In this document: positions 11,964 through 54,885 of the stretch, in pieces | Numbering within the stretch: the first letter of the stretch is position 1 | Layout of the letters: each line of letters starts with the position of its first letter | Assembly: GCA_965213885.1 (NCBI GenBank) | Contig: OZ243919.1 | Location: 1,372,692-1,436,691 of the forward strand | Length of the DNA: 64,000 bases | Reading direction: 5' to 3' | DNA from: Candidatus Poriferihabitaceae bacterium | GTDB taxonomy: Bacteria; Pseudomonadota; Gammaproteobacteria; Arenicellales; Poriferihabitantaceae | The notes under the pieces: generated by a model | Seen by the model: only the letters and a program-made list of their open reading frames with translations | Database searches by the model: none | What the model was told of the DNA's origin: nothing | Program-made: the position numbers and the translations under genes

Positions 11964-11990
11964 TCGGCACGCCGCACAGGCGAGGGTGGT

Positions 11991-34068: not shown

Positions 34069-34208
34069 GTTAGATTGCGAGTTGGATTTGGATCACTATG
34101 AGGAAATCAAGATTAAACCAGGCCGGAACAGCCGGATATCCGCATGATTGTTGTACACCAGCCGGTCACTTTCGGTGTATCTGATTGTGATTCATCATTC
34201 TTGTATAT

Positions 34209-34225
34209 TGTATACCATATACCAA
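34209..34225. promoter_or_regulatory. Operator-like motif copy A in the sucC / FAH divergent intergenic region
   Basis: + strand TGTATACCATATACCAA, which is the reverse complement of TTGGTATATGGTATACA. It is nearly identical to the sites at 51481-51496 and 54867-54885. Confidence 0.5.
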
Positions 34226-34375
34226 GAGTACCACCCTATCCGGGTCTACACAATGCCCCGGCACCGGTGCTATCTTCCGCTCTTGTCCGCCGGCACCGGT
34301 TGACCGGACATGGTCCGTCAGCATCTGCACGTGAACATGCTGCAATACCCTCAACGATAACCCTGATTTTACTGT

Positions 34376-35161
34376 ATGGCTACCTGGATCCGATTCGAAA
34401 ATTCTGGAAATACCGCATTCGGTCTGCTTGAGCAGGCCTCCATCCGTGTGCACGAGGGGGACATGTTCGGACCCACGCAGGCCACCGGCGAGGTCGTGGC
34501 GCTCAGCGATGTCACTATCCTGACGCCCTGCGTTCCAGGCAAGATGCTGGCTCTGTGGAACAATTTCCATGCCACCATGGAAAAGACCGGTCTGCCGAAG
34601 CCCGGACATCCCTGGTACTTCGTCAAGACCCCGAATACCTATGCCCCCGCCGGCGCTGTGATCCGAAGACCCGACGCCTGCGGCGGCAAGGTGCTGTTCG
34701 AGGGAGAACTCGGCATTGTCATCGGCCGGGACTGCCACAATGTTTCGGTCGGGGATGCCGATGAATACATATTCGGCTATACCTGTATCAACGATGTGAC
34801 CGCGCTTGAGCATCTTTTCAGTGAGCAGAAGTTTGCCCACTGGACCAGGGCCAAGTGCTTTGACGGGTTCGGTGTGTTCGGGCCCGGCATCACCTGCGGC
34901 GTCAATCCGGATGAACTGGTCGTCATGACATACCTGGAAGGCGAAGGCGAAGTCCAGGAGCGGCAGAATTACCCTGTCAGCGACATGATCTACGGACCGC
35001 GGGAAATCGTGAGCCGCATCTCCCATGACATGACGCTGAATCCGGGAGACATCATCGCCTGCGGCACATCCGTGGGAGCCGGCGCCCTGAAGGACGGCTG
35101 GACCGTGCGCATCCTCATTGAAGGTGTCGGGGAACTTGTCAACCGCTATGACGGACGCTGA
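34376..35161 (+). CDS. Fumarylacetoacetate hydrolase (FAH) family protein
   Basis: 261 aa. GELGIVIGRDCHNVSVGDADEYIFGYTCINDVTA and the metal-binding acidic residues are typical of FAH/HpcE-like enzymes. Confidence 0.85.
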   Translation: MATWIRFENSGNTAFGLLEQASIRVHEGDMFGPTQATGEVVALSDVTILTPCVPGKMLALWNNFHATMEKTGLPKPGHPWYFVKTPNTYAPAGAVIRRPDACGGKVLFEGELGIVIGRDCHNVSVGDADEYIFGYTCINDVTALEHLFSEQKFAHWTRAKCFDGFGVFGPGITCGVNPDELVVMTYLEGEGEVQERQNYPVSDMIYGPREIVSRISHDMTLNPGDIIACGTSVGAGALKDGWTVRILIEGVGELVNRYDGR

Positions 35162-35538
35162 TGGGCCTGCTTTCGGAACGGGCAGCCGGGCTGGTCGCCG
35201 GCCGGCTGGTCTTGAACTTCGCGGCCATGGCCTTCCTGGGGGTCACCCTGTTCCTGACCTGGCAGGGCAATGCCTGGTCTTTGCTGTTCACCCTGCGGGG
35301 ACTCGCGTATCTGCTGTGCGGATTGGCCATCACCGGCGGTATCATTGGTGCACTACCGGCCCACCTGCACGGAAAGCTGGTCCGATGGATGCTGGCCCGG
35401 GGCGATGGCGACCCCGGCCCCCGGGAAGCGGCCATGATCCGCTGGACAGGAACCTTCGTGCTGTTGTGTCAGCTGCTGCTGGTTTACTATCTGACCCTGT
35501 GGTCCTACGACCGTTGGGTACTCCCTGCACCGGGATGA
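35161..35538 (+). CDS. Hypothetical small membrane protein (about 3 TM)
   Basis: The ATG overlaps the FAH TGA (TGATG), suggesting translational coupling. It has three hydrophobic segments. I recognise no family. Confidence 0.5.
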   Translation: MGLLSERAAGLVAGRLVLNFAAMAFLGVTLFLTWQGNAWSLLFTLRGLAYLLCGLAITGGIIGALPAHLHGKLVRWMLARGDGDPGPREAAMIRWTGTFVLLCQLLLVYYLTLWSYDRWVLPAPG

Positions 35539-37284
35539 TCAGTCATCGTTCCCCGTGAGGCGTTCGGTGTCCGGATAAACGCTGACAACCGGCACCTTCC
35601 CCGTCTGCAGGTCCCGCTGGATGGACTCCCAGTAATCCACCGTCAGCAGCATGGGGTGCTCGGCCTCGAAATGACGCCGCAGTTCCCGATAGGGCAGGCA
35701 CAGCCCTGCAACCAGTTCCTCCGGCAAGAATACCACCCCGTCCTCGAAATACCAGTCGGGGATATCCTCCTCACCATCGATGCGATCGGTATTGGTGCGG
35801 ATCTTGACGTCAGTAAGATCCTCCAGGGCATCGTAGTCGTACAGGTACACCTTCAGATAGGAGGTGACACCATAGTTGCGTGCATCCAGATCCCGGTTGA
35901 ATATGTTTCCCGCGGCATTGTTCTTGATGCAGTATCCAAGATTGACCATCGCTGTCTCTGCCTGCTTTGGCGTGGCGTTCTCCAGGTAAACCGGCAACGG
36001 TGTCAGGCGGCGCTGCACGATGAGATAACGGAAAACCAGTGCATCGCCATCCAGGTATACGCTTTCTCTGGCGTATTCCAGCAGCTGATCCAGCAACTCC
36101 CCAGCAAACCAGGAAACATTCAGCCGGAGGTTATAGAAGATGATGGCATCAAGCATGCTGTCGGTTCGATTGATCTCGTGTACCCTGGTGTACTTTCTGA
36201 GCACCGACGGAACCCCGTCAAACCTGCCCCACTTGTAACCGCCGGTCGGCTTGTCCCGCACGACCTTGAGCACATAGGCCGAATCCGGCATGCAGAACCC
36301 GATTGCCACAGTGCCGGGTTTTCCTGGAGCCACGTCCATGGGGCGACCGCCCGACTCGAACTCCGCCTCCAGTTCGTTCATCACCGCCACCTTCCCGAGA
36401 TGATTGTATCCCACGGTGGAATAATGCAGCCCCAGGGGACGCATGGGCATGATACTGCGCAGGAAACGACACAGTTCATGATAGTAGAAACTGGTGACAT
36501 GAAAGTTCGCCAGTGTGGAACTGAACATGTTGTGCGCATAGGTGGCACTGTTGATGAGCGCATCCACGTAGAGTCCCTTGTCGCCATTCAATAATGCGAT
36601 GATGAAGGGGCGATACCGCTCATGGTCGAATGTCGTACGGCCCACCATGTAGGCACCACGGTTGCGATAAAACCCCGCCGGGAACATTTCGATTACCATG
36701 GGGGTGTCCCGCAGGCGCGACTCGAGGCCGAGGTTGCGGTACGCCCGGGTCACGATCCGCCGGGCATCGCGGTCCATGTCCTCATAGGGCACTTCGAACG
36801 CCTCCATGGCAAGGACCTCCTTCACGGTCTGCACGGTCAGCCTGTTCCGGATCTCGTACCGTACAAGCTGGTCGGCCATCACCTCGTCGGTTTCGTATTT
36901 GCTGCGATAGCTGGCGTAATCGTTGACCCGCCACTCCCCCTGGTAGATCTTGCGCCTGATGGAATGCAGGTAGGCCATCGCCAGATCCGCTGCATACTCC
37001 CCTTCCACCGCTTCGAGATATCGCTTCTCCACCATTTCCCAGGAGGACTCGTCACCAGCCAGTACCGGGTACTCCCGCTTGATGCGGTCGCTGAAGTCAC
37101 GGATGCTGATACTGTAGAGCTGCAGCCGACGACTGCTCAGCCGCAGGGAACTGGCATGATCACGCCTTTCAAAGGCCTTCCTCGAGAGTTCCGGTATTTC
37201 CTTGAACTGCCGGTAAAAATCACGGAATTCGCCCAGTACCAGATCGGACACGATGTTCCATTGCGTGCCGGTATGGTCATCCAT
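35539..37284 (-). CDS. aceK: Isocitrate dehydrogenase kinase/phosphatase
   Basis: 581 aa, with the length and overall sequence typical of AceK (..FKEIPELSRKAFERRDH.., ..NIFNRDLDARNYGVT..). Divergent from aceA. Confidence 0.92.
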   Translation of the reverse strand: MDDHTGTQWNIVSDLVLGEFRDFYRQFKEIPELSRKAFERRDHASSLRLSSRRLQLYSISIRDFSDRIKREYPVLAGDESSWEMVEKRYLEAVEGEYAADLAMAYLHSIRRKIYQGEWRVNDYASYRSKYETDEVMADQLVRYEIRNRLTVQTVKEVLAMEAFEVPYEDMDRDARRIVTRAYRNLGLESRLRDTPMVIEMFPAGFYRNRGAYMVGRTTFDHERYRPFIIALLNGDKGLYVDALINSATYAHNMFSSTLANFHVTSFYYHELCRFLRSIMPMRPLGLHYSTVGYNHLGKVAVMNELEAEFESGGRPMDVAPGKPGTVAIGFCMPDSAYVLKVVRDKPTGGYKWGRFDGVPSVLRKYTRVHEINRTDSMLDAIIFYNLRLNVSWFAGELLDQLLEYARESVYLDGDALVFRYLIVQRRLTPLPVYLENATPKQAETAMVNLGYCIKNNAAGNIFNRDLDARNYGVTSYLKVYLYDYDALEDLTDVKIRTNTDRIDGEEDIPDWYFEDGVVFLPEELVAGLCLPYRELRRHFEAEHPMLLTVDYWESIQRDLQTGKVPVVSVYPDTERLTGNDD

Positions 37285-37376
37285 GGGAAGGGATCGTGCC
37301 GTGCGTCGTCATCATCGGTCTGTACTGTGCTGTGGTTAATCTGGCACCGAGCCATGCCATTTTATTATATTAATTA

Positions 37377-37405
37377 TTGAAATTAACTATAATTTGAAAT
37401 TTCAA
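37377..37405. promoter_or_regulatory. AT-rich aceK/aceA control region: TTGAAATT direct repeat and perfect palindrome TTGAAATTTCAA
   Basis: TTGAAATT at 37377-37384 and again within the 12-bp perfect palindrome at 37394-37405. It resembles the GAAAT..ATTTC core of IclR-type boxes. Confidence 0.35.
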
Positions 37406-37503
37406 GAATTGACATTAAAACAATTGGTTTATTGCAGTCTTGTCCCCTGCGGGCTGATTCCGGATGATTGAATTGACCGATTGTACCTTTGAGGAAACAG
37501 GCG

Positions 37504-38820
37504 ATGAGCAGAAATATGACCCGGGCGGAGCAGGTTTCCGCCCTAGAAAAGGATTGGGCCGAAAGTCCCCGCTGGAAAGACGTGCGGCGCAACTACAGCG
37601 CGGAGGATGTAGTCCGGTTGCGCGGATCGGTGCAACCGGAACTCACCTATGCCCAACGTGGAGCGGAAAAGCTGTTCGGCCTGATTCATGGCGGAGCCCG
37701 CAAAGGCTATGTGAACTGTCTTGGAGCCCTGACGGGCGGCCAGGCGGTACAGCAGGCCAAGGCGGGCATCGAAGCGGTCTACCTGTCCGGCTGGCAGGTG
37801 GCCGCTGATGCCAACACCTCGGAATCCATGTACCCTGACCAGTCCCTGTACGCCTACGACTCTGTCCCCACGGTGGTGCGACGGATCAACAACGCCTTCG
37901 CCCGGGCCGACCAGATCCAGTGGCAGCGGGGCATTGAGCCCGGTGATGACGGGTACGTCGACTATTTTCTGCCGGTCGTGGCGGATGGTGAAGCCGGCTT
38001 CGGCGGCGTACTGAACGCCTATGAACTCACCCGAAACATGATCAGCGCCGGAGCCGGCGGTGTGCACTTCGAGGATCAGCTCGCCGCCGTGAAGAAGTGC
38101 GGCCACATGGGCGGAAAGGTACTGGTGCCTACCGAGGAGGCCATCCAGAAACTGGTGGCAGCACGACTGGCCTGTGACGTGGCAGGGGTGTCCACACTGA
38201 TACTCGCCCGCACCGATGCCGAGGCTGCCAACCTGCTGACCTCGGATTACGATGTTCGGGACCGACCCTTCCTGACCGGCGAACGCACCGCTGAGGGATT
38301 TTACCGGGTGCGGAACGGCCTGGAGCAGTCCGTTGCCAGGGGAGTGGCCTATGCACCCTACGCGGACATGGTATGGTGTGAAACCGGCACTCCGGATCTC
38401 GGCTTCGCCCGTGAATGGGCGGAAGCTGTGCGCAGGGAAAACCCGGGGCAGCTCCTGGCCTACAACTGCTCTCCTTCATTCAACTGGAAGAAAAATCTCG
38501 ACGACAGCGCAATTGCCTCCTTCCAGGACGAGTTGGCCGCGATGGGCTACACCTACCAGTTCATCACCCTCGCCGGCATCCACAGCATGTGGTACAACAT
38601 GTTCAGCCTAGCGAAGGACTACGCTGCGGGCGAGGGCATGAAGCATTACGTGAACCAGGTGCAGGAACCGGAATTTTCCGCCGCGGGCCGCGGGTACACC
38701 TTCGTCGCACACCAACAGGAGGTGGGCGCTGGATACTTTGACGATGTCACGACCACCATCCAGGGCGGCACCTCGTCCGTCACCGCCATGGCGGGGTCCA
38801 CGGAAGAGGATCAGTTCTGA
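37504..38820 (+). CDS. aceA: Isocitrate lyase
   Basis: The catalytic loop [14 protein letters not shown] is present. The ATG at 37504 has a GAGGAAA SD, whereas the track start at 37489 is a TTG. Confidence 0.95.
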
Positions 38821-38826
38821 TTCAGC

Positions 38827-38845
38827 GCCGGGTTTTCCTCCCGGC
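38827..38845. terminator. Candidate bidirectional hairpin between the convergent aceA and malic enzyme genes
   Basis: GCCGGG-ttttcct-CCCGGC, followed by the 12-bp palindrome CGCTCGCGAGCG. Confidence 0.35.
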
Positions 38846-38884
38846 CGCTCGCGAGCGCTGCATGGCGCCCGCCAGGCCGCCTGA

Positions 38885-40096: not shown

Positions 40097-40652
40097 GAGA
40101 AACGGGATGGATGGCGAACAAATGGGAAGCTGCGTATTGTACGCCACCGTACATGGGGTACGCGAATGATGATTCCGATTCACAGCGATTTTCAAAGATG
40201 GCCTTTAATTTGATCTGTTATTGATCTCTTTACGATTTTCGGGATCAGTGGATGATGTCTTTGGTGTTGTGTTGGTGAATCAGGGAGGCTGTGGGCCGGA
40301 CGGCCCGGCAGTGCCTCGCCATCGCGGCACTGCCGATGCTACCCCCAGCTCGAGAACACTGCAGACGCCAACGTTGAGTAATATCGGGGCTCAATAGCGC
40401 TGCTTCCCCACTCGCTTCACGACAGGCGTTGCCGCCCGCCATGCACCACTCGCTCCCGCCCGGTGGGATGCACCTTTACCGGGCAGGAGTGGAACCTGCT
40501 GGACTGCGATGAATGGTTTCCGTGATGTCATCACATCCTCCATCTCAGGACTTGCTCTGGCGCAACTCCGAGAATAATATTGCATGATAATTTACTAAAT
40601 TTATTGTCATATTAGCCACCGGGCGTTATATTTGCCAACGGAGGTCATGGCT

Positions 40653-41234
40653 ATGAAGCGTTTGGATCAGTTGAAAAGACACCTGCGCCCCGGGCGTGTG
40701 TACCGACGCGCGGATCTGGCCGAATGGTCGAAGAGCGTTGACCGGCATGCCCGTGAGCTGGTCGAACAAGGCGTGCTGCAGAAGCTCCGCAACGGGCTCT
40801 ATTTCTACCCCAAGGCGTCTGTTTTTGGCCGCGTGCCGGCGGACGAGCGTGAGCTGGTGCGCAGCTTCCTGAAAGAGGACGACTTTCTGCTCACTTCCCC
40901 CAATGCCTATAACACCCTGGGACTGGGCACCACGCAGCTCTATAACACCCGTGTCGTCTACAACCACAAGCGTCATGGCCGCTTCACTCTGGGCCGCATG
41001 TCCTTCGAGTTCCGCAGGAAGCCCCGCTTCCCCCGGCAACTGACCGAAGAGTTCCTGCTCGTCGACCTGTTGAATAACCTGCCTGAACTGGCCGAAGACC
41101 CGACCGCGGTGCGTGAGCGCGCGCGCGCCAAGGCGCAGGAATTGGACACCGCCAGGCTCCGGCGCGCCGCGCGTGACTACGGCAAGGTCGCCACGCGCAA
41201 GTTCTTCGAACAGGCGTTGTCGGATGCCGCCTGA
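40653..41234 (+). CDS. AbiEi-like (type IV toxin-antitoxin) antitoxin / transcriptional regulator
   Basis: About 193 aa with a winged-helix-like N-terminus. It directly precedes an AbiEii-family gene and overlaps it by 11 nt. A GGAGG sits 8 nt before the ATG at 40653. Confidence 0.6.
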   Translation: MKRLDQLKRHLRPGRVYRRADLAEWSKSVDRHARELVEQGVLQKLRNGLYFYPKASVFGRVPADERELVRSFLKEDDFLLTSPNAYNTLGLGTTQLYNTRVVYNHKRHGRFTLGRMSFEFRRKPRFPRQLTEEFLLVDLLNNLPELAEDPTAVRERARAKAQELDTARLRRAARDYGKVATRKFFEQALSDAA

Positions 41235-42180
41235 TCCTTTCCTGCACCAGCATTCCGATTTTGCCGACCTGATCCGCATCGTCGCCGACGAACGGGGGCT
41301 GCTACCCGCACTCGTGGAGAAGGACTACTGGATCATGCACTGCCTGTACGGCCTGGGCGCACAGGGTTTCGGCTTCGAGCTCAAGGGCGGCACCTCGCTG
41401 TCGAAGGGCTTCGGCATCATCCAGCGCTTTTCCGAGGACATCGACATTCGCATCGACCCGGTATGCGCCCCCTTCGAGGTCTTCACCGCGCCGAATCAAA
41501 CCAAGAAGGCGCGGCACATCGAGTCAAGGCGGCAGTTCTACGACTGGCTTGCCGATCAGATTCACATCGAAGGTATCTCCGGCATCGTCCGCGATCACGC
41601 CTTTGATGACGAGAAATGCCGCAGCGGCGGCATCCGCCTCCATTACACCAGCGCCTTCAACCATCCGGCGAGCCTGAAGGAAGGCATCCTGCTGGAGGTC
41701 GGCTTCGAGGACACCCTGCCCAATATATGCCGGACGATTTCGTCCTGGGCCTTTGAGCGGGCCACCGACACCGGCGTTGCCATCGGCGACAACCGCGCAA
41801 TGGACGTACCCTGCTATCACCCCGGCTACACCTTTGTGGAGAAGCTGCAAACCGTTTCCACCAAGTTCCGCCAGCAACAGGACAACGGGGCGTTACCACC
41901 GAACTTCCTCCGCCACTATTACGATATCAGCCAGCTACTGGACTACCCCGAGGTGACTGCGTTCATCGTCACCCCGGCATATCACGCACGAAAGGAGCAA
42001 CGCTTCCGGAAAGATGACAAGCTGATCATCGCCGACAACGAGGCGTTTCTCTTATCCGACGCGGCGACCCGCGAGCAATACACCCTGACCTACCAGGCAA
42101 CAGCCCCGCTCTATTTCGGCGGGCAACCACCCTTCGACGCCATTCTGGCGAAGATCCAGGAGTGGATCGACAGGCTATAG
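41224..42180 (+). CDS. Nucleotidyltransferase AbiEii/AbiGii toxin family protein (DUF1814)
   Basis: FADLIRIVADERGLLPALVEKDYWIMHCLYGL...FELKGGTSLSKGFGIIQRFSEDIDI is the family hallmark (GGT.L...R.S.DiD). Confidence 0.8.
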   Translation: MPPDPFLHQHSDFADLIRIVADERGLLPALVEKDYWIMHCLYGLGAQGFGFELKGGTSLSKGFGIIQRFSEDIDIRIDPVCAPFEVFTAPNQTKKARHIESRRQFYDWLADQIHIEGISGIVRDHAFDDEKCRSGGIRLHYTSAFNHPASLKEGILLEVGFEDTLPNICRTISSWAFERATDTGVAIGDNRAMDVPCYHPGYTFVEKLQTVSTKFRQQQDNGALPPNFLRHYYDISQLLDYPEVTAFIVTPAYHARKEQRFRKDDKLIIADNEAFLLSDAATREQYTLTYQATAPLYFGGQPPFDAILAKIQEWIDRL

Positions 42181-42765: not shown

Positions 42766-42768
42766 GTG

Positions 42769-43773: not shown

Positions 43774-43800
43774 TGATTCGTCAGAAAAAGAAATGGATTC

Positions 43801-44013: not shown

Positions 44014-44093
44014 ATGCACGAGATTACCTCCCGTACATGGCCGGTATGGCCCGGGACGTAATATCAACTCATCCCCGGCCGCCGCCGCGGTCG

Positions 44094-44960: not shown

Positions 44961-44984
44961 CGGGTGGTGGTTGATGGATGAGTA

Positions 44985-46652
44985 CTAGAAAAGGCCTTCC
45001 ACCTGCCCTGCTTCATTGATCCGGATACTGTTGGCTGCCGGCACCCTGGGCAGGCCGGGCATGGTCATGATATCACCACAGACCGCCACGACGAAACCAG
45101 CGCCCGCGGACAGCCGCACCTCCCGGACCGGCAGGACATGTCCCGTGGGTGCACCCTTCCTGTTCGGATCCGAGGAAAAGCTGTATTGCGTCTTGGCGAT
45201 GCAGACCGGCAAGTCGCCGAAGCCGGCCTCCTGCAGGTCCCGAATCTGGTTGCGGGTTTTCTGATCGGCGACGATCTCGTCGGCACGGTAGATCCGGGTG
45301 GCAACGGTCTCGATCTTCTCCCACAGCGGCATCTCATCCGGATACAGCGGGGCGAACTGGCTCTCCCCGCTGTCCGCCAGCTTCACGGCCTCCTCGGCCA
45401 GGGTCATGGTGCCGGCACCTCCGTCCGCCCAATGGGTAGCATCAATAGCCCGGACGCCCTGACTTTCGGTGGCCTCGCGTACCGCCGCCATTTCCGCGTC
45501 GGTATCCGCGCTGAAACGGTTGATGGCCACCACCACGGGAACCCCATAGGATTTCACGTTCTCGATATGGCGCTTCAGGTTGACGCAGCCGTCTTTCACC
45601 GCCTGTACGTTCTCGCTGCCGAGATCATCCCTGGCAACGCCGCCATGCATCTTGAGCGCACGCACAGTGGCCACGATCACCGCCGCATCCGGTGCCAGAC
45701 CCGCGCTGCGGCACTTGATGTCGAAGAATTTTTCCGCACCCAGGTCCGCGCCGAAGCCGGCCTCCGTCACCACATAATCCGCCAGCTTGAGAGCGGTACG
45801 TGTTGCCAGCACGGAATTGCATCCATGGGCGATGTTTGCGAACGGTCCGCCGTGGATGAATGCCGGATTGTGCTCAAGTGTCTGCACCAGATTGGGCGCC
45901 AGGGCGTCCTTGAGCAGCACGGTCATGGGGCCGGGCGCATTGACAGATTCCGCCCGGACAGGCTGGCGGGTACGGGTATAACCGATCACGATTCGACTCA
46001 GGCGCTCCTGCAGGTCCTCAAGACTCCCGGCAAGACAGAAAATGGCCATCACTTCCGAGGCAACGGTAATGTCGAAACCGTCCTCCCTGGGGAACCCGTT
46101 CGCCACACCGCCAAGGGAACTTGCGATCTGCCGCAGTGCCCTGTCATTCATGTCCACGACACGTCGCCAGGCCACCCGGCGAGTGTCCAGGCCGGCCTCG
46201 TTGCCCCAGTAGATGTGATTGTCGATCAGTGCCGACAACAGGCTGTGGGCGGATGTGATGGCGTGGAAGTCTCCGGTGAAATGCAGGTTGATGTCCTCCA
46301 TCGGGACCACCTGGGCATATCCGCCGCCGGCCGCCCCCCCCTTCATGCCGAAGCATGGCCCGAGGGAGGGTTCCCGCAGACAGACCATGGCGTTCTTGCC
46401 GATCCGGTTGAGACCGTCGGTCAGTCCCACGGAAGTCGTGGTCTTGCCTTCACCGGCCGGCGTCGGCGTGATGGCGGTTACGAGAATCAGCTTGCCGTCC
46501 GGCCTGTCCTGGATGGAATCGATATAGTCCAGGCTGACTTTGGCCTTGGTATGCCCGTAGGGCATCAGTGACTCGTTGGGAATGCCGAGCTTGTCGGCAA
46601 CTTCCCTGATGGGCCGAATTTCCGCCGCGCGGGCAATTTCGATATCGCTCAT
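44985..46652 (-). CDS. fhs: Formate--tetrahydrofolate ligase
   Basis: 555 aa. SDIEIARAA...[17 protein letters not shown] is canonical FTHFS. Confidence 0.96.
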
Positions 46653-46725
46653 GATCAGTCTCTCTATTGTTCAATCTTACGGTGTTGGCTGTAACCGGAC
46701 CCCTGCGGACATGCGTCGCAGGGAT

Positions 46726-47637
46726 TCAGTTTCCGAGCATGTCTCCAGGCACGAGTCCGGTCTGGGCAGCGTATTCGTTGGCCGGGATTTTTCCGCCATC
46801 CGCACGAACCCTGGAAACCCGGATGGAACCACCATCCGCGGCAACCTCGAATCCACCGTCATCCACTGCAATCACTTCTCCCGGCCTGCCTGTGCCTTCA
46901 CCCCGGACGGCATTGAAAATCTTCAGTTCCCTGCCGTGACGGGTGGTCCAGGCGCCGGGCTGGGGATTGGCGGCGCGGACAATGTTATAGACGTTTGCCA
47001 CGGGCCGCGTCCAATCCAACTCCGCCTCCTTCTTGCCAAACCACGACTCGTAGGATCCCTCGGCCAGGTTCTGCTCGATTCGCGGCGCCTTTCCTTCCCG
47101 CACGAGGTCGAGGGATTCGATCATGGCTTCGACCCCCATGGGAAACAGCTTGTTGAAGTAGACGTCCCCCAGCGTTTCATCCGGACCGATCCCGCAGGTT
47201 TTCTGCAACAGCATCGGGCCCTCGTCCAGTCCGTCGTCCGGCCAGAAAATGGTCAGGCCGGTGCGGGTGGCGCCCATGGCGATGGGCCAATTGATGGAAG
47301 ACGGCCCGCGGTGCATGGGCAGCAACGAGGGGTGATACTGGAAGGAACCGTGCTTCGGGATGTCGAGGACCGCCGAGGGTACGAACAGAAGTACATACGC
47401 CATCATGCAGATGTCGGCGTCAAAGGATTTCATCAGATCCAGGGCCTCGTCGGTCTTCCAGGACGCGGGCTGGTGCACCGCAAGGTCCCTTTCCAGCGCC
47501 AGCTCCTTCAACGGGTCCATGGGGCGTCCCTCCCTGTCGGGGGCAGTACAGATCGCCACCACGTTCTCGCCACGTTCCAGCAGCTTCTCCAGCACCGCGC
47601 GGCCGAAGGCCTGCTGCCCGTGTACAACTATTCTCAT
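46726..47637 (-). CDS. Stand-alone formyltransferase resembling the N-terminal domain of 10-formyl-THF dehydrogenase (Formyl_trans_N + Formyl_trans_C)
   Basis: MRIVVHGQQAFGRAV..., HGSFQYHPSLLPMHRGPSSINW and GLTIFWPDDGLDEGPMLLQK align by eye with ALDH1L1 (MKIAVIGQSLFGQEV; YHPSLLPRHRGASAINW; FTIFWADDGLDTGDLLLQK). Confidence 0.85.
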   Translation of the reverse strand: MRIVVHGQQAFGRAVLEKLLERGENVVAICTAPDREGRPMDPLKELALERDLAVHQPASWKTDEALDLMKSFDADICMMAYVLLFVPSAVLDIPKHGSFQYHPSLLPMHRGPSSINWPIAMGATRTGLTIFWPDDGLDEGPMLLQKTCGIGPDETLGDVYFNKLFPMGVEAMIESLDLVREGKAPRIEQNLAEGSYESWFGKKEAELDWTRPVANVYNIVRAANPQPGAWTTRHGRELKIFNAVRGEGTGRPGEVIAVDDGGFEVAADGGSIRVSRVRADGGKIPANEYAAQTGLVPGDMLGN

Positions 47638-47707
47638 GTTTCGTTCTCCAATTATGGGTGGGCCGTCATCGGCCCGGGGGCCGGCCCGTAAGAAGGGTCG
47701 TCAATCT

Positions 47708-48952
47708 TCAGACCACGCCGGCTTCCTGCATGGCGGCAACCTCGTCCCCGGAGTAGCCGAGCAGAGACAGGACTTCCTCGGTGTGTTCACCCAGCAGAGG
47801 CGAGCGCATCACGTCCACCGGGGAATCGGACAGCTTCACGGGGCATCCGACGGTCAGGTACTTGCCGCGCTCCGGGTGATCCACCTCAACGATGGTTCCG
47901 GTTTCGCGCAGCGAGGGTTCCTCGGCCAGCTCCCTCATGGACAGGATCGGACCCACCGGGATGTCCAGCGGATTGCAGATTTCCATGACCTCGAACTTGG
48001 TCTTGGTCATGGTCCATTGCTCGATGGCGCCAAACACCTCATTGAGCCTTGGCAGCCGGGCATCCGGAGTGGTGAAGTCCGGATCCTCCTTCCACTCGGG
48101 CATGCCGATCACGTCGCAGATCTTCTGCCACACTGCGGCCTGGGTGATAAAGTATGTGTATGCGTTGGGGTCTTCTTCCCAACCCTTGCATTTCAGGATC
48201 CGGCCGGGCTGGCCGCCGCCCGAATCGTTCCCGGACCTCGGCGTGGCGTCACCGAAGGGAATATTCTCGCCGTACTGGGAATACTCCTTGAGGGGGCCTG
48301 CAGCCAGACGCTGTTGATCGCGGAGCTTCACCCGGCAGAGATTCAGGACCCCGTCCTGCATCGGTGCCAGTATCCGCTGCCCCCGGCCGGATTTTTCACG
48401 GTGATACAACGCGGTCACGATTCCGAGCGCCAGGTGCAGACCGGTTCCGGAATCCCCGATCTGGGCTCCCGTCACCAGCGGAGGCCCGTCAAGGAACCCG
48501 GTTGTGGACGCGGAGCCGCCCGCACATTGGGCGACGTTCTCATACACCTTGCAATCCTCGTAGGGCCCCGGGCCAAACCCCTTGACCGATGCCATGATCA
48601 TGCGGGGATTGAGCGACTGCACCCGCTCCCAGCCGAAACCCATCCGGTCGAGGGCGCCCGGTGCAAAGTTTTCCACCAGGACATCGCATTCACCGATGAG
48701 TCGCTCCAGGACCTCCTTGCCGTCCGGCGTCTTGGTATTGAGTGTCAGGGAGCGCTTGTTGTGATTGAGCATGGTGAAATACAAAGAATCAGCCCCCGGC
48801 ACATCCACCAGTTGCTTGCGGGTGGCATCACCCACACCAGGGCGTTCGACCTTGATGACATCTGCACCGAACCAGGCCAGCAGCTGCGTGCATGTCGGCC
48901 CTGACTGGACATGGGTGAAATCAAGGATCCTTACACCTTCAAGTGCCTTCAT
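47708..48952 (-). CDS. frc: Formyl-CoA:oxalate CoA-transferase
   Basis: Very high similarity by eye to E. coli Frc: [51 protein letters not shown] and [14 protein letters not shown]. Confidence 0.93.
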
Positions 48953-48984
48953 ATTCGAGAACTCCCGTTATTGAATGTTTGAGA

Positions 48985-50724
48985 TTACTTGTACATGGTC
49001 TGGGCCTTGGTACCCGGTGCGTATTCATCCGGGTCCACCCAGACATTCACCACGGCGCACATCCCGGTTCTAGCGATGGCTTCCCTGGCACGTTGCAGTG
49101 CAGGCTGGATCTGGCTCGCATCCCGCACTTCTTCGCCGTAGCCGCCGATCATCTGTCCGAACATGCTAAAGGGCACGTCACCGAGCTTGTTCCCCACATC
49201 GCCACGCTCAGCGCCGTACTTGGCGATCTGGCCGTAGCGGATCTGGTTCATTGCGGAGTTGTTGCCCACGACGGCCAGGTACGGAGCACCGAACCGCTGG
49301 GAGGTTTCCATGTCGAAGGCGGTCATGCCGAAAGACCCGTCGCCGTACAGGCAGACCACCTCTTTTTGCGGATGCGCCAACTTGGCGGCCATGGCAAATC
49401 CCGTGCCGACACCGAGTGATCCCAGGGCGCCCGGGTCCATCCATTGCCCTGGCCTGCGTGGCCGCACCGCCTGGGCGGAAATGGTGACGATATCCCCACC
49501 GTCGCCGATGTAGATGGTGTCTTCCCCGAGGAACCGGTTGATCTCATAGGCCAGGCGATACGGATGGATCGGGTTCTGGTCAGTGGTGAACATGGGCATC
49601 AGCTTCTCCAGCTTTTGCCCCTCGATCCCGCGAAGCTGTTTCATCCATTCCTGGCGTTTCTGTCTGGCCCCCCGGTCGATCCGCCCGGATGCGGCCTGGG
49701 TCACGGCGGTGAGAACGGCACCGGGGTCACCGGCGATGCCGAGCGCAACATCCCGGTTCTTGCCGACGGTGGCGTAACTCTGGTCGATCTGCACCAGCAC
49801 CAGGTCCTGCGAAATCCGCTTGCCGTATCCCATGCGGAAATCGAACGGCGTTCCGACGATCAGAATCACATCCGCGTTGGAAAAGGCATCCCTGCGGGTC
49901 CGATCGAAATGATGGGGATCATCTTCCGGAAGCATGCCCCGGCTGGCCCCGTTCATGTAGGCGGGAATGTCCAGCGCCCGTATGAATTCGATGGCCTGCT
50001 CATGGCCCTGCGAGGCCCAGACCTGTTGCCCGAACAGCACCGCCGGACGTTCTGACTTGACCAGGATATCAGCCAGTTTCTCGATGTCCGCCGGGTCTCC
50101 GATGGCTTTCGTGGACGACCGGTAATGCCCGGGCTTCGGGACGACCGCCTTTTCCATCGGAATTTCCGCATCCAGAATATCCCTGGGAATTTCGAGGTAG
50201 GAGGGACCGTAGGCGCCGTTGAAACACTCCCTGGCCGCCATGGAGACCATGTCCGCCACCCTCTCGGTGGAGAATACTCCGGAGGCGAACTTGGTGATGG
50301 GAGCCATCATGTCCACATGGGGCAAATCCTGCAGAGAGCCCATCTTGTGCTGAGTCAGCGAACTTTGGCCGCCGATATGGAGAATGGGGCTTTCGGATCG
50401 AAACGCCGTGGCGATTCCGGTCACCGCGTTGGTGCAGCCCGGACCGGCGGTGGTCACCACGCAACCCAGCTTTCCCGTCTGGCGCGCGTAGCCATCCGCG
50501 GCGTGGGCGGCAGTCTGTTCGTGGCGCACATCCACGATGCGGATGCCCTCGTCGATGCATCCGTCGTAGATATCGATGATGTGACCGCCGCACAGGGTGA
50601 AAATGGTATCCACGCCCTCGTTTGCCAGGGCCTTGGCGACCAGATGTCCACCGGAAACCACTGCTCCGCTTTTGTCCTTTTGCGCCAGCGTGTCGGTGGC
50701 GGTGTCTCTGCTGCTGTCGTTCAT
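48985..50724 (-). CDS. oxc: ThDP-dependent enzyme, probable oxalyl-CoA decarboxylase
   Basis: Acetolactate-synthase-like fold with the ThDP motif GDGSFGMTAFDMETSQRFGAPYLAVVGNN. The assignment to Oxc rests on adjacency to frc. I prefer the start at ATG 50724 (GGAGAA SD). Confidence 0.7.
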   Translation of the reverse strand: MNDSSRDTATDTLAQKDKSGAVVSGGHLVAKALANEGVDTIFTLCGGHIIDIYDGCIDEGIRIVDVRHEQTAAHAADGYARQTGKLGCVVTTAGPGCTNAVTGIATAFRSESPILHIGGQSSLTQHKMGSLQDLPHVDMMAPITKFASGVFSTERVADMVSMAARECFNGAYGPSYLEIPRDILDAEIPMEKAVVPKPGHYRSSTKAIGDPADIEKLADILVKSERPAVLFGQQVWASQGHEQAIEFIRALDIPAYMNGASRGMLPEDDPHHFDRTRRDAFSNADVILIVGTPFDFRMGYGKRISQDLVLVQIDQSYATVGKNRDVALGIAGDPGAVLTAVTQAASGRIDRGARQKRQEWMKQLRGIEGQKLEKLMPMFTTDQNPIHPYRLAYEINRFLGEDTIYIGDGGDIVTISAQAVRPRRPGQWMDPGALGSLGVGTGFAMAAKLAHPQKEVVCLYGDGSFGMTAFDMETSQRFGAPYLAVVGNNSAMNQIRYGQIAKYGAERGDVGNKLGDVPFSMFGQMIGGYGEEVRDASQIQPALQRAREAIARTGMCAVVNVWVDPDEYAPGTKAQTMYK

Positions 50725-50761
50725 AAGTTCAGTTCTCCAGATCGTTCTTGGTTCCTGCAGA

Positions 50762-51457
50762 TCAATCGAGATAGTCGACATACTGCTTGATGTGCTCGGC
50801 GAGAGTCATTGCATGCTCCCGCACCAGTTGTTCCGCCATGGTGGCATCACGGGCTTCCACTGCCCTGATGATGCGCATGTGGTCGATGATCGACTCCGTG
50901 GCCCGATCCCGTTCACCAATGGTTTTTCTGCGGATGGCGCGCATGTGCATGAACAGGCCATCGGTGATTTCCTTCAACAGGCGGCACTTGCTGAGCTCGA
51001 TCAGCCGCTGGTGAAAGAGGATATTGGTATCCGAGTATTCGTCGATGTGGGCCCTCGCCTCATGACTTTCATCGAAGGTGGCGAACATGCGGCGCATGGA
51101 AGCGATCTCTTCATCACTCGCGTTCTCGGTGACCAGGCGCGCGGCCATGCCCTCGAGCCCCGCCCAGACACAGACGATTTCCAGAATCTCCGCTTTCGAC
51201 TTGCGGACCACGAAGGCGCCACGGCGAGGATAGGTTTTCACCAGCCCCTCCTGTTCGAGGCGTGTAATGGCCTCACGGATCGGGGTCCTGCTGACACCCA
51301 GGTTCATCGCAAGCTTCCGCTCATCCAGCTTGGGTGGTTCTTCGCCGGAATAGATGTCCATGCCGGATATCGCATCCTTGATGGCCTGATAGACCGATTC
51401 CTTGAGCCCCGGAGTAGCCTCCAGGGGTTTAACCGTAACGATGCTGTCAGAACTCAT
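50762..51457 (-). CDS. GntR-family transcriptional regulator, FadR/FCD subfamily
   Basis: 231 aa. wHTH (ERKLAMNLGVSRTPIREAITRLEQEGLV) plus an all-helical FCD domain. Confidence 0.88.
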   Translation of the reverse strand: MSSDSIVTVKPLEATPGLKESVYQAIKDAISGMDIYSGEEPPKLDERKLAMNLGVSRTPIREAITRLEQEGLVKTYPRRGAFVVRKSKAEILEIVCVWAGLEGMAARLVTENASDEEIASMRRMFATFDESHEARAHIDEYSDTNILFHQRLIELSKCRLLKEITDGLFMHMRAIRRKTIGERDRATESIIDHMRIIRAVEARDATMAEQLVREHAMTLAEHIKQYVDYLD

Positions 51458-51473
51458 GGTCAGTCGAAAATCC

Positions 51474-51497
51474 CGGTATCTGGTATCTGGTATACAA
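51474..51497. promoter_or_regulatory. Operator-like motif copy B, immediately upstream of the GntR gene
   Basis: CGGTATCTGGTATCTGGTATACAA carries three GGTAT units. The core TGGTATCTGGTATACA (51481-51496) differs by 1 nt from copies A and C. Confidence 0.45.
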
Positions 51498-51533
51498 TCC
51501 TGTCGATTCAGACGATATCCGGTGTTGCATGGT

Positions 51534-53063
51534 TCAGCCCTGCCCTTGTCCCATTCCCAGATTGCGGCGCCTGTAACGAATGAGTTTCTGGATGAGCGGA
51601 TAACAGATGAGCGCCAGCGCGATCAGGATACAGACTGCGGAGATGGGACGGGTCATGAACACGGTCACGTCTCCGTGAGAGGCCAGCAGGGATTGTCGCA
51701 ATGAACGCTCGGCCAGGGGGCCCAGCACGATCGCCAGTACCGCGGGCGCCACGGGGTAGTTCAGTTTTCTGAGCAGATAGCCCACCACACCGAACAACAG
51801 CATCAGCCAAACGTCGTGCATGGTCTGGGTGGGTGCATAACCGCCCACCACGCAGAGAATGTAGATAATCGGCGCCAGGATGGAAAACGGCAGCGTCAGT
51901 ATCTTGACGAAAAGCGGGATAAACGCCAGGTTGATCACCAGGGTTGCGAAATTCGCGATGTACAGCGACCCGATCAGGCCCCACACGAATTCCGGATTCT
52001 CGGTGAACAGCAGCGGACCCGGTCTGAGCCCCCAGATGATCATGCCCCCCAGCAGGATGGCGGTCGTCGGCGATCCCGGGATTCCCAGGGTGATCATGGG
52101 CAGCATGGAGCCGGTGGAGGCAGCGTTGTTGGCCGCCTCCGGTGCAGCGACGCCCCCCACATTGCCCTTGCCGAAACTGTCGGGATCCTTACTGAAGGTT
52201 TTCGCCAGGCCGTAGGACATCAGGGAGGCCGGGGTTGCTCCCGCGGCAGGCAGGGTGCCGACGAAGTAGCCGAGCACCGATCCCAGGGAGGTTGTTCCGA
52301 TATAGTTCTTGATGTCCCTGAAATTGCTCTTCATCCTTTCCAGGGAAATCTGGACCTTGTGCACCATCACTTCACCCTTGGTGGTTTCCAGGGTCCAGAG
52401 CATTTCCCCGATGCCGTAAATACCGATGGCAAGCACCAGAAAGTTGATGCCATGGAGGAATCCGTCGATGTCGCCGAAAATGAGTCTCGGCTGACCGGAA
52501 ATGATGTCAAGGCCGACCGCCGCCAAGACCAGTCCGATGAGTATGGAAAAGATGGTTTTGGGAATATCGTCCCCACCAAGCCCGATGAACGTGGCGAAGG
52601 CCATGATCATCAGGGCGAATTCCTCCGCTGGCCCGAACCTGAGCGCAAAGGATGCCAGCGGTGGCGCGAACAGGGTGAACAGCACCACGGAGATGGTGCC
52701 GCCGACGAAAGAGGCCACCGCTGCGGCGGTCAGCGCCCTGTCTGCCTGCCCCGACTGGGCAAGCGGCCTGCCGTCGAACACCGTTGCTACCGCGGTGGAT
52801 GCCCCGGGTATGCCCAGCGTGATCGAACTGATGGCACCCCCGTACATCGCGCCGTAATAGATTGCCGCAAGGAAGATGATCGCGGCGGTGGGCGGTACGA
52901 TGAAGGTGATGGGAAGCAGGATGGCCACCCCGTTGACCGAACCAAGGCCAGGCATGGCGCCGATCAGCAGTCCCAGCGCACAGCCGATGATGATCATCAT
53001 GAAATTGAGTGGCTGCATCGCCTCGGCCAAGCCACCCATCAGATGAAGAAAAATGTCTTCCAC
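51534..53063 (-). CDS. tctA: Tripartite tricarboxylate transporter large permease
   Basis: 509 aa, about 12 TM, with a typical TctA N-terminus (LMGGLAEAMQPLNFMMIIIGCALGLLIGAMPGLG). Confidence 0.92.
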   Translation of the reverse strand: MEDIFLHLMGGLAEAMQPLNFMMIIIGCALGLLIGAMPGLGSVNGVAILLPITFIVPPTAAIIFLAAIYYGAMYGGAISSITLGIPGASTAVATVFDGRPLAQSGQADRALTAAAVASFVGGTISVVLFTLFAPPLASFALRFGPAEEFALMIMAFATFIGLGGDDIPKTIFSILIGLVLAAVGLDIISGQPRLIFGDIDGFLHGINFLVLAIGIYGIGEMLWTLETTKGEVMVHKVQISLERMKSNFRDIKNYIGTTSLGSVLGYFVGTLPAAGATPASLMSYGLAKTFSKDPDSFGKGNVGGVAAPEAANNAASTGSMLPMITLGIPGSPTTAILLGGMIIWGLRPGPLLFTENPEFVWGLIGSLYIANFATLVINLAFIPLFVKILTLPFSILAPIIYILCVVGGYAPTQTMHDVWLMLLFGVVGYLLRKLNYPVAPAVLAIVLGPLAERSLRQSLLASHGDVTVFMTRPISAVCILIALALICYPLIQKLIRYRRRNLGMGQGQG

Positions 53064-53144
53064 GCTATACCTCGGTGCTCAGTGGTGATGCCCCTGGCTC
53101 GGTGATTGCCCGGAAGGCCATTAAGCAGCTAACCAGTCCGGACA

Positions 53145-53651
53145 TTACGAATACATCAGGTCGTAGATCGGATAGAACATCGGTTCCGTGATGGACTTCG
53201 GCAGCGGAATCTTGAGTGCCCACTCAAACAGGCAGAAAATGAAAACCGGAACCAGGACCATCATGGCAACCGTGATCAGCCAGGAATGCCTGCCGACAAA
53301 CCTGAGATAGAACAGCAGGAACAGGAACAGCGCGACATAGATGCCCAGCAGGTGTGTCACAACCAGGAGAAATACGATGGACCCCGCTGATATCCCCACC
53401 AGCAGGGCGACTTCCCTGGTCATGTAGGGCTCAAGGTTCCTGGACTCCGGGGTGGTTCCGCGAAACCACCGGAACATGGTGGCTACACAGGCCAACAGCA
53501 TGCCTGCCGAAAGCCAGAACGGCCAGGCACCCGAACCGGGCCCCCTGTCAGGTACCCATCCGATCCTGAGTTCCGCACTCTTGACCATGAGCCCTATGGA
53601 GCACAGTGCGAGCAGTACTGCCATCAGGATTTCTGCGGTACGGACTGTCAT
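53145..53651 (-). CDS. tctB: Tripartite tricarboxylate transporter small permease
   Basis: About 168 aa, 4 TM, located between tctC and tctA. The ATG at 53651 has a GAGG SD; the track start at 53693 remains possible. Confidence 0.75.
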   Translation of the reverse strand: MTVRTAEILMAVLLALCSIGLMVKSAELRIGWVPDRGPGSGAWPFWLSAGMLLACVATMFRWFRGTTPESRNLEPYMTREVALLVGISAGSIVFLLVVTHLLGIYVALFLFLLFYLRFVGRHSWLITVAMMVLVPVFIFCLFEWALKIPLPKSITEPMFYPIYDLMYS

Positions 53652-53824
53652 GGTGGTTACCTCGTTGGTGGTCACCGTCCTCCTGCCCGTCATTCAGGAC
53701 ATCGGGCGGCTCACAGAACAGTGATGCTGTATCCGGCATCACCCTCCTCGGGGATGCCGGCCGGAGCGGCGATACAACGCCGCCCCGGCCATTGTCGACA
53801 AACGGTTATCGATATGGAATCGAA

Positions 53825-54832
53825 TTACTCGCCGGTGATCGCAGTTGCACCGACGGATTCGATCAGTTCCTTGTGCAGGGCAATCTGCTGGGTATGGTAC
53901 GTACCAAGGTCATCACCGGCCAGCCACTGGTCGCAGGCCAGGCCATCATCCGTGCAGAATTTCTGCCACTCCGCGGATTCAAACAGCGTCTTGAACAGGT
54001 TGATGTACCAATCCTGAGCCTCCTGGGACATTCCCGGAGGTCCGTTGATGGAACGCTGCATGTAGTACTCCATGTTTACCCCCAGTTCGTTCGCAGTGGG
54101 AACGTCCGGATAGGCGGGAAGGCGCTCTGCCGTGAACTGAACGATGGGCTTGGTTTCCCCGGCACGGTAGAACTCGTTCTGCTCGGCCGGGTTGTTCACC
54201 GTGGAGTCGACGTGGTTGCCCACCAGGTTCTTGGCCACCGTGCCACCGCCCGGGAATGGGATGTAGGTCACGTCGTAACCGAACTCCTTCTCCATCATCG
54301 CAGTCAGGATGGAATCCTCCTGGCCGGTGCCGGTGCCGCCGACTTTCCAGTTGTTGCCGGCAGCCTTGACGGCGGCCACATAGCTGTCAAGATCGGTGAT
54401 GTCTTCGCGCCCGCTGTTAACCCAGAGCACGAAGTTGTCGATCGCCATCCGGCCGATGGGCGTGAAGTTTGACACGTCCACGCCGATGCCCTTCTGTATG
54501 ACCGGTGTGGTGTAGAAGCTGTTCAACGTTACGAGGATGGTATGGTCGTCACCGTCCTTGTCCTGGATGTAGCGCAATGCCTCTGCGCCGGAACCTCCGG
54601 GCTTGTTGATCGGGATGATGGGCCGTGGCGAGAGGTCCTTCTTCTCGATCAGACCCTGCAGCAGTCGGGCAATCTGGTCAGCACCTCCACCGGCCCCCGC
54701 CATGATGATCAGCTCAACGGGCTTTTTCGGGGACCACTCGGCCATCGCAGGAGCCGAAAGCCCCAATGATGTCGCGGTGGCAACGGCAACCGGAACAGCC
54801 GCCTTTTTTAACTTAGAAAGTACAGTACACAT
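53825..54832 (-). CDS. tctC: Tripartite tricarboxylate transporter substrate-binding protein (Bug/TctC family)
   Basis: 335 aa with a signal peptide ending SAPAMA and Bug-family motifs (IIMAGAGGGADQIARL; NKPGGSGAEAL). Confidence 0.9.
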   Translation of the reverse strand: MCTVLSKLKKAAVPVAVATATSLGLSAPAMAEWSPKKPVELIIMAGAGGGADQIARLLQGLIEKKDLSPRPIIPINKPGGSGAEALRYIQDKDGDDHTILVTLNSFYTTPVIQKGIGVDVSNFTPIGRMAIDNFVLWVNSGREDITDLDSYVAAVKAAGNNWKVGGTGTGQEDSILTAMMEKEFGYDVTYIPFPGGGTVAKNLVGNHVDSTVNNPAEQNEFYRAGETKPIVQFTAERLPAYPDVPTANELGVNMEYYMQRSINGPPGMSQEAQDWYINLFKTLFESAEWQKFCTDDGLACDQWLAGDDLGTYHTQQIALHKELIESVGATAITGE

Positions 54833-54866
54833 CAGTTTTTATCCTCCAGAGGAAATGATTTGATTT

Positions 54867-54885
54867 TTGGTATATGGTATACCAA
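54867..54885. promoter_or_regulatory. Operator-like motif copy C, 35-53 nt upstream of tctC
   Basis: TTGGTATATGGTATACCAA has 8-nt inverted arms TTGGTATA/TATACCAA and contains the 10-bp palindrome TGGTATACCA. Confidence 0.5.

Follow-up and report, generated by a model that had tools for sequence, protein, structure and literature searches.

In the 64,000-nucleotide stretch of DNA analysed here (the window), three intergenic copies of one palindromic motif, sites A, B and C, are most probably operators of a GntR-family regulator of the FCD subfamily (VanR group), whose gene, gntR, lies at 50762-51457. The host is an uncultured gammaproteobacterial sponge symbiont with a 3.56-Mb genome of 62% G+C, 85% of which is coding. 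The regulator, sites A-C and the target genes are known here from sequence comparison, and DNA binding is predicted. A preliminary description of the window had proposed that this one regulator controls its own gene, the genes for the Tct transporter, those of formyl-CoA metabolism further downstream and the region of sucCD and FAH. As a prediction, this proposal is supported by the conservation of the sites, their co-occurrence with the regulator, their placement at promoters and the recognition helix of the protein.

Candidate operator sites and their rarity in the genome

The three sites in the window, and a fourth strong site elsewhere in the genome, are as follows.

Operator A: 34201-34224, minus strand; plus-strand sequence TTGTATATTGTATACCATATACCA, reverse complement (toward sucC) TGGTATATGGTATACAATATACAA
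Operator B: 51474-51497, minus strand; plus-strand sequence CGGTATC-TGGTATC-TGGTATACAA, a core palindrome with two phased half-sites
Operator C: 54868-54891, minus strand; TGGTATATGGTATACCAAATACCA, a near-perfect 24-bp palindrome 36 nt 5' of the tctC ATG
Operator D: genome positions 1718130-1718153 (weight-matrix match) or, as a shorter span, 1718137-1718153, ~345 kb from the window start; TGGTATACAATATACCA, 42-49 nt 5' of mnhE

Direct reading of the window placed copies A, B and C where they had been described, and the third GGTATC unit reported at copy B is real, as the composite sequence of operator B shows. The distances given earlier for copies B and C from their genes are correct once the strand is set, as gntR and tctC both lie on the minus strand. 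The sites share one plan: beside a 10-bp palindromic core, T(G/T)GTATAC(C/A)A, each has one or two additional half-sites, TGGTAT or ATAC(C/A)A, at an offset of exactly 7 bp. The core is found in all four strong sites, and its central GTATAC, also seen in the operator of the Agrobacterium regulator Atu1419, bears out the earlier classification of the motif as a GT..AC palindrome of the GntR-family type. In operator C the 10-bp core is TGGTATACCA, and the two half-sites outside it keep the 7-bp phase. Operator A lies in the divergent intergenic region of sucC and an FAH-family gene, at distances of 133 and 152 nt from their respective ATG start codons, and operator B lies inside the 76-nt gap between tctA and gntR, ending about 17-24 nt ahead of the gntR ATG.

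To place these copies in a genomic context, a degenerate pattern was counted in the window and in 100 shuffles of it, the exact 17-nt pattern TGGTATNTGGTATAC was sought genome-wide, and a weight matrix built from sites A-C was scanned over the whole genome and five shuffled genomes. The window holds six matches to the degenerate pattern (three loci and one weak match) compared to an expected 0.09 ± 0.32, and none of the 100 shuffles reached six. In the 3.56-Mb genome, the exact pattern occurs at sites A, B and C only, all of them intergenic. The weight matrix returned one more strong site, operator D, with a score of 25.6 bits compared to maxima of 14.8-19.1 bits in the shuffled genomes, and all four strong sites are intergenic despite the high coding density. 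Weaker genome matches at 2231163, 2942472, 1444305, 438796 and 1195250 lie within coding regions without phased units and were rejected.

Conservation in relatives and the predicted regulator

We sampled 41 genomes, 23 with an orthologue of the regulator and 18 without. Besides the present genome, all 12 sampled members of the genus have an orthologue, as do three other genera of the family and seven genomes from six other families of the order, with 52-98% identity. The exact 17-nt pattern is present in 19 of the 23 genomes with an orthologue, and in all 23 when up to one mismatch is allowed. In the genomes lacking the orthologue the exact pattern was absent (0/18), and the five one-mismatch hits there are at the level of the reversed-pattern control (~0.3 per genome).

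The positions of the sites are conserved as well. Upstream of tctC, the 24-bp site is found in 13 of 13 aligned genomes with the tctCBA-gntR cluster, which come from several genera and families. The conserved footprint in these 13 genomes comprises TTTACA, 17 nt, (A)GTATTCT, 5-6 nt, the operator and the ribosome-binding site, with a variable spacer and variable flanks; the operator is the chief invariant block, and the conserved hexamers agree with the -35/-10 pair obtained from a consensus scan. A site stands 5' of the gntR orthologue in most members of the genus and in several other families, and the gene order downstream of gntR is conserved together with gntR in relatives. In the sucC/FAH intergenic region, the site is kept at 10 of the 11 loci of the genus having that arrangement. 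The motif is thus conserved upstream of the orthologues of tctC, gntR and sucC alike, which the preliminary description had left to be checked.

The site also accompanies the regulator where the locus has been rearranged. In G025 an operator heads a qor-sucC2D2-gntR-frc unit, and in G030 two sites lie between gntR-TPP-frc-fmt-fhs-tctCBA (TPP, the thiamine pyrophosphate enzyme gene) and a divergent sucCD-fdsB unit. In G035 tctCBA is far from gntR and retains its site, and G036 has sites ahead of a SucCD-like pair and of fdsB. The association extends to another bacterial class: in metagenome-assembled genomes (MAGs) of alphaproteobacterial Paracoccaceae, a regulator 51% identical to the one studied here is followed by an fmt-like gene 66% identical to its counterpart, and the intergenic region that separates gntR from a divergent SucCD-like pair holds two sites. 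In two of the Paracoccaceae genomes (6-7 Mb), both gntR/SucCD-like intergenic sites are the only genome-wide matches to the local pattern; at one Paracoccaceae locus (L036 of G041), the gene module is present and no matching site was found. That the formyltransferase is better conserved than the regulator hints at lateral transfer between symbionts or at a tight functional pair.

The Paracoccaceae MAGs are sponge-associated, and the mini-module lies at positions ~7500-12000 of each of the loci L036-L040. A separate observation concerns G012, the genome that has lost the sucC operator. Its locus L085 (G012:C31) carries a match at 3994-4017, ~160 nt 5' of a dctP gene of the tripartite ATP-independent periplasmic (TRAP) type and beside a D-2-hydroxyacid dehydrogenase gene, and this site may mark a lineage-specific member of the regulon.

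The regulator itself is described in the following line.

gntR: 50762-51457, minus strand; 231-aa GntR-family regulator of the FCD subfamily, with Pfam GntR and FCD domains

It matches the GntR domain PF00392 (57 bits, residues 19-83) and the FCD domain PF07729 (75 bits, residues 93-215), which places it in the family and the subfamily, respectively. The AlphaFold2 model (mean local confidence, pLDDT, of 81.5) has a three-helix winged helix-turn-helix with a two-strand wing and six C-terminal helices (88-112, 115-123, 138-155, 159-179, 183-201 and 205-230). Six C-terminal helices are the mark of the VanR group, the FadR group having seven (PMC7797058), and the modelled fold accordingly points to a VanR-group FCD regulator. 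The best solved relatives are PmiR (7xp0) and Atu1419 (6z74), and the best PDB neighbours are mostly of the VanR group (Atu1419, TM0439, McbR, 3IHU and AlkR). The protein is not an orthologue of UxuR or ExuR: it scores 24.2 bits against a cut-off of 442 for the UxuR model NF007588 and 21.8 against 396 for the ExuR model NF008571.

The recognition helix S56-R57-T58-P59-x-R61-E62, which reads SRTPIRE here, is invariant in 21 orthologues, as are N145, H149, H193 and H215. The three histidines H149, H193 and H215 align with the zinc ligands H141, H192 and H214 of Atu1419, and the four-residue spacing between N145 and H149 is the same as that between N137 and H141 in Atu1419. We therefore predict a metal site of one Asn and three His in the effector pocket. 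Together, the recognition-helix and metal-site residues fit a protein that would recognise GTATAC palindromes and bind its effector at the metal site.

Predicted target promoters and genes, and proposed pathway

The first predicted target is the tctCBA-gntR cluster. On the minus strand the order is a DASS-type transporter, pyruvate kinase, a quinone-oxidoreductase-like gene, a SucCD-like pair, site C, tctC, tctB, tctA, site B, gntR, a TPP enzyme, frc, an fmt-like gene, fhs, a Usp-family (universal stress protein) gene and a panE-like reductase. The features concerned, besides gntR, are listed below; the TPP enzyme, assigned to the 2-hydroxyacyl-CoA lyase (HACL)/oxalyl-CoA decarboxylase (Oxc) type, and the three genes after it were identified by NCBIfam and PDB comparison.

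Quinone-oxidoreductase-like gene (qor): 57282-58265, minus strand; upstream of the SucCD-like pair and operator C
Diverged SucCD-like pair: sucD2 55039-55911 and sucC2 55911-57185, minus strand; directly upstream of operator C
Predicted tctC promoter: 54898-54926, minus strand; -35 TTTACA (54926-54921), 17-nt spacer, -10 TATTCT (54903-54898), from the consensus scan
tctC: 53825-54832, minus strand; periplasmic binding protein of a tripartite tricarboxylate-type transporter, first gene of tctCBA (Pfam PF03401, 82 bits)
tctB: 53145-53693, minus strand; membrane part of the transporter (Pfam PF07331)
tctA: 51534-53063, minus strand; membrane part of the transporter (Pfam PF01970)
TPP enzyme, HACL/Oxc type: 48985-50724, minus strand
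frc, formyl-CoA transferase: 47708-48952, minus strand
fmt-like formyltransferase: 46726-47637, minus strand
fhs, formate-tetrahydrofolate (THF) ligase: 44985-46652, minus strand

Operator C begins 6 nt past the predicted -10 element of tctC, and a GGAGGA ribosome-binding site stands ahead of the tctC ATG at 54832. For the SucCD-like pair and qor, the searches of this genome gave no separate operator site; in some relatives they are regulon members, behind the operator in G025 and, for the pair, in the Paracoccaceae MAGs. As to the enzymes, frc passes the oxalate formyl-CoA transferase equivalog TIGR03253 (709.9 bits against a cut-off of 504.2). The TPP enzyme, called oxc in the preliminary description, does not bear out that name: it falls below the oxalyl-CoA decarboxylase model NF006721 (216 bits against a cut-off of 557) and its match to solved 2-hydroxyacyl-CoA lyases (7pt1, 264 bits) is closer than that to Oxc of Oxalobacter formigenes (2c31, 150 bits). 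The oxc label is insecure for these reasons, and the pathway may, judging from these matches, cleave a 2-hydroxyacyl-CoA instead of oxalyl-CoA. Further downstream, an AbiEii-family nucleotidyltransferase toxin gene and its overlapping upstream partner (40653-42180, plus strand) lie between the malic enzyme and panE-like genes and break the order of the metabolic island; relatives have panE and maeB adjacent.

Site A lies 17 kb from the tct-gntR cluster, between two divergent units with the following features.

sucC: 32899-34068, minus strand; NCBIfam assignment, probable target of operator A
sucD: 32024-32899, minus strand; NCBIfam assignment, probable target of operator A
Predicted sucC promoter: 34225-34253, minus strand (leftward); -35 TTGTGT (34253-34248), 17-nt spacer, -10 TACTCT (34230-34225), abutting operator A
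NAD-type formate dehydrogenase: NuoE/F-like beta subunit (fusion) 30108-31805 and alpha subunit 27360-30107, minus strand; downstream of sucD
FAH-family gene: 34376-35161, plus strand; Pfam PF01557, divergent from sucC
orf125: 35161-35538, plus strand; 125-codon open reading frame after the FAH gene
aceK: 35539-37284, minus strand; convergent with FAH-orf125

The genome holds just two SucCD pairs, and the one at 32024-34068 is its sole canonical succinyl-CoA synthetase. The sucC promoter comes from a reading of the upstream alignment and is a consensus match only; TTGTG(T/C)-17-TA(T/C)TCT recurs in most of the 13 aligned genomes, including G012, which has no operator there. G003, for which the search gave no FAH homologue, still has the operator 5' of sucC, and so does G022, whose FAH gene is elsewhere; in G022 the site lies 22 nt before sucC. 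On the FAH side, the spacing between site and gene ranges among genomes from 79 to 159 nt, and no conserved hexamers could be placed. Site A is assigned to sucCD because the conserved promoter faces sucC and the FAH distance varies without placeable hexamers. Of the earlier suggestion that sucCD, FAH or both are controlled from here, the sucCD part is thus upheld and the FAH part is uncertain. FAH is near the gntR cluster in most of the searched genomes that have it, adjoining the qor gene of the cluster in G022, and membership of FAH-orf125 in the regulon is possible on this positional evidence. The inclusion of aceK, also put forward earlier, fails, since aceK is on the minus strand and convergent on FAH-orf125 and therefore cannot be driven from site A.

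In the 219-nt gap between sucD and the formate dehydrogenase genes, neither a terminator nor a promoter consensus was found, and in relatives the order sucCD-fdsB follows the sites in G030 and a site is upstream of fdsB in G036. The formate dehydrogenase genes may therefore be co-transcribed with sucCD, as far as the gap and gene order indicate. The direct target of site A is, in our reading of the region, probably sucCD, possibly with formate dehydrogenase included.

The fourth site, D, precedes mnhE, with which a cation:proton antiporter operon of the Mrp/Mnh type begins. In eight genomes of the genus (L076-L081, L089) it stands out as the chief conserved block ahead of mnhE, and no convincing -35/-10 pair could be placed in that upstream region.

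We propose the following mechanism, in which we infer that the regulator binds, in what sense it acts, how its subunits assemble and what kind of effector releases it. Each winged-helix monomer would read a TGGTA half-site, with Arg57 contacting the G of GT like Arg45 in Atu1419. A dimer would sit on the 10-bp core T(G/T)GTATAC(C/A)A, and the half-sites 7 bp away would draw in additional subunits, perhaps as a second dimer or a tetramer. The bound protein, on or just past the -10 element, would block transcription; repression at tctC and sucC is indicated because the operator there directly follows a conserved -35/-10 pair. The targets would be tctCBA, from which transcription would run on into gntR, the HACL/Oxc-like gene, frc, the fmt-like gene and fhs; sucCD, possibly plus the downstream formate dehydrogenase genes; and, outside the window, the Mrp-type antiporter operon. 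Site B would serve an internal gntR start and negative autoregulation. An inducer, a small carboxylate or one-carbon (C1)-related metabolite bound to the Asn/His3 metal site in the FCD domain, would release the protein from DNA, and induction would then lead to substrate uptake and breakdown to formyl-CoA and formate.

In the proposed pathway, Tct would import an organic acid and Frc would turn it into its CoA thioester; the CoA would be supplied or primed by succinyl-CoA synthetase or by the SucCD-like ligase. Cleavage of the thioester by the TPP enzyme would yield formyl-CoA, and Fhs, the formyltransferase and formate dehydrogenase would clear its formyl unit. As substrate, oxalate and a 2-hydroxy acid are the candidates. 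That the Mrp link reflects ion or pH balance during this metabolism is speculation.

A wider reading of the same data, which we put forward tentatively and regard as rather doubtful, is that the regulon is an undescribed formyl-CoA/formate module of sponge symbionts and not a plain oxalate switch. Its parts would be the Tct importer, the HACL-like lyase, Frc, the fmt-like enzyme, Fhs, SucCD, the SucCD-like ligase, the NAD-dependent formate dehydrogenase and the Mrp antiporter. The regulator would perhaps sense a C1 carrier, which by analogy with Atu1419 and methylene-THF might be formyl-CoA or a folate derivative and not the imported substrate, and the arrays would perhaps be bound by a higher-order oligomer. 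In the literature retrieved, we found no description of a GntR regulator that binds contiguous 7-bp-phased arrays as a higher-order oligomer.

The analysis yields a testable regulon for an uncultured sponge-symbiont lineage. One switch would tie the Tct transporter, a lyase pathway that forms formyl-CoA, the disposal of formate, succinyl-CoA synthetase and the Mrp antiporter together, which narrows the role of the pathway and the candidate inducer metabolites. The combination of TTTACA-17-TATTCT and the 24-bp site with a small regulator is a possible biosensor part once the effector is known. The mechanism as such follows the standard GntR/FCD repressor design, a fairly ordinary local switch.

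Alternative explanations and known systems

Several observations weigh against assigning all of these sites to the single regulator as repressor operators. Site B was undetected in G003, G016 and G022; in these genomes gntR lies ~40-95 nt after tctA and would be read from the tctC promoter. Kinship and the joint inheritance of regulator and targets inflate the co-occurrence counts, which makes the rearranged loci and the cross-class cases the more independent evidence. Simple promoter scans reported no -35/-10 pair at site A or site B, and the promoter hexamers are consensus matches only. The 7-bp offset of the half-sites misfits simple side-by-side dimers. Finally, two FCD-type paralogues in the genome have single TGGTATACCA-like sites beside their genes, and cross-recognition is therefore possible.

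This last point leads to the alternative that the sites are real operators bound by another regulator, either an FCD-type GntR paralogue or an unrelated factor, which we consider unlikely. The genome holds at least three other FCD-type GntR paralogues, ~26-28% identical (1674576-1675286, 2663098-2663781 and ~2154104-2154673); a TGGTATACCA site heads the operon ending in the first of them and a TTGTATACCA site lies before the second listed. Moreover, E. coli UxuR uses the TGGTATACCA core, identical to the core here (PMC8092373), and since the GTATAC core is common to UxuR and Atu1419, it is by itself not specific. However, no loci other than the four linked to this gntR have the multi-unit, 7-bp-phased form, the motif stays with orthologues of this regulator in rearranged loci and in another bacterial class, the exact motif is absent from the genomes without the orthologue, and no other regulator gene was identified among the annotated cluster genes. 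Improbable to a similar degree is that this GntR binds the sites but works at some promoters, such as those of FAH or mrp, by activation or in a dual role. The position of site A, 152 nt 5' of FAH, is more typical of activation or of no effect, and at sites D and B no -35/-10 pair could be placed with confidence, but at tctC and sucC the operator comes right after a conserved -10, and the VanR-group relatives with structures, Atu1419 and PmiR, are described as repressors (PMC7797058).

Much less likely is a function of the palindromes as 5' hairpins in RNA, acting on stability or termination rather than as protein-binding DNA. Sites C and A are long palindromes predicted to fall at the extreme 5' end of their transcripts, for which starts are expected at about 54892-54890 (tctC) and about 34219-34217 (sucC), and a scan flagged one weak terminator-like hairpin beside site C. 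Sites B and D, however, are not palindromic as wholes, being direct repeats with one core; the identity of the bases (TGGTATACCA) is conserved and not their pairing, as the variable positions 7 and 18 show no covariation; and the motif occurs in both orientations relative to genes. A dispersed repeat or chance similarity without regulatory meaning could appeal to the AT-richness of the motif in a GC-rich genome, whose intergenic DNA is generally AT-rich. This explanation is effectively refuted by the genome counts (four strong copies only, all promoter-proximal), the window shuffles, the phyletic test and the alignments upstream of tctC, sucC and mnhE, in which copies are kept at orthologous positions while the flanks diverge. 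Operators of the GntR/FCD regulator encoded by gntR are thus the reading that we retain.

The paralogue-linked sites at 1681885 and 2663061 were set aside as members of this regulon and assigned to the neighbouring paralogues, given the 8-bp spacing of the former and the paralogue-adjacent position. The former (genome 1681885-1681908) is a TGGTATACCA palindrome with an extra half-site at 8-bp and not 7-bp spacing, before a second tctCBA operon. This operon (region 1674576-1683042) contains enolase-superfamily, aldehyde dehydrogenase and dihydrodipicolinate synthase (DHDPS)-like genes, is divergent from a pdxA-like gene and has an FCD GntR paralogue as its last gene. It probably forms a sugar-acid regulon in its own right. 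The latter (genome 2663061-2663070) is the TTGTATACCA site, 28 nt ahead of what we count as the third GntR paralogue (2663098-2663781), and is probably that paralogue's own autoregulatory site.

Among known systems, the closest comparison is Atu1419 of Agrobacterium fabrum (PDB 6Z74, 6ZA3), a VanR-group FCD GntR repressor that was crystallised on 5'-ATGTATACAT-3', with Arg45 contacting G and zinc held by Asn137, His141, His192 and His214 in the effector pocket (PMC7797058). The two proteins share the domain plan with a six-helix effector domain and the metal site of Asn and three His, and their recognition helices are one conservative residue apart (SRTPVRE there, SRTPIRE here), Arg45 corresponding to R57. 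The 10-bp GTATAC palindrome is of the same type (ATGTATACAT compared to T(G/T)GTATAC(C/A)A), and in both the operators overlap core promoter elements and the regulator's own gene is repressed, here as a prediction. In contrast, Atu1419 is only ~26% identical, controls hydroxycinnamate-degradation genes and has 5,10-methylene-THF as its effector. Its palindromes are 109-190 bp apart and bridged by a tetramer into a DNA loop, whereas the half-sites here are contiguous at 7 bp.

PmiR of Pseudomonas aeruginosa (7XP0/7XP1), likewise a VanR-type FCD protein, is the closest solved structure by sequence (E 2e-24) and by fold (TM score 0.73-0.85). PmiR responds to 2-methylisocitrate and controls methylcitrate-cycle genes. 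Its 33-34% identity is too low to infer orthology, and the regulon here has tct, frc, HACL-like and fhs genes and no prp genes. The hexuronate regulators UxuR/ExuR of E. coli (FCD GntR; operator AAATTGGTATACCAATTT) also serve several unlinked promoters and autoregulate, as predicted here, but use a single 18-bp palindrome without 7-bp-phased half-sites, are not orthologous and belong to another pathway.

With the oxc-frc oxalate pair (Oxalobacter formigenes; yfdU/yfdW of E. coli), the cluster shares an frc equivalog beside a TPP enzyme of the Oxc/HACL superfamily, and the predicted regulon here includes formate-handling genes (fhs and formate dehydrogenase); it differs from the canonical module in that oxc fails its equivalog. 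Our literature searches returned no description of a GntR regulator of oxc/frc genes or of oxalotrophy. In summary, the system belongs to a known class: a GntR/FCD repressor that would use a GTATAC-type operator and control a small set of genes, its own among them. Less usual are the contiguous 7-bp-phased half-site arrays and the inclusion of a housekeeping succinyl-CoA synthetase and the Mrp operon.

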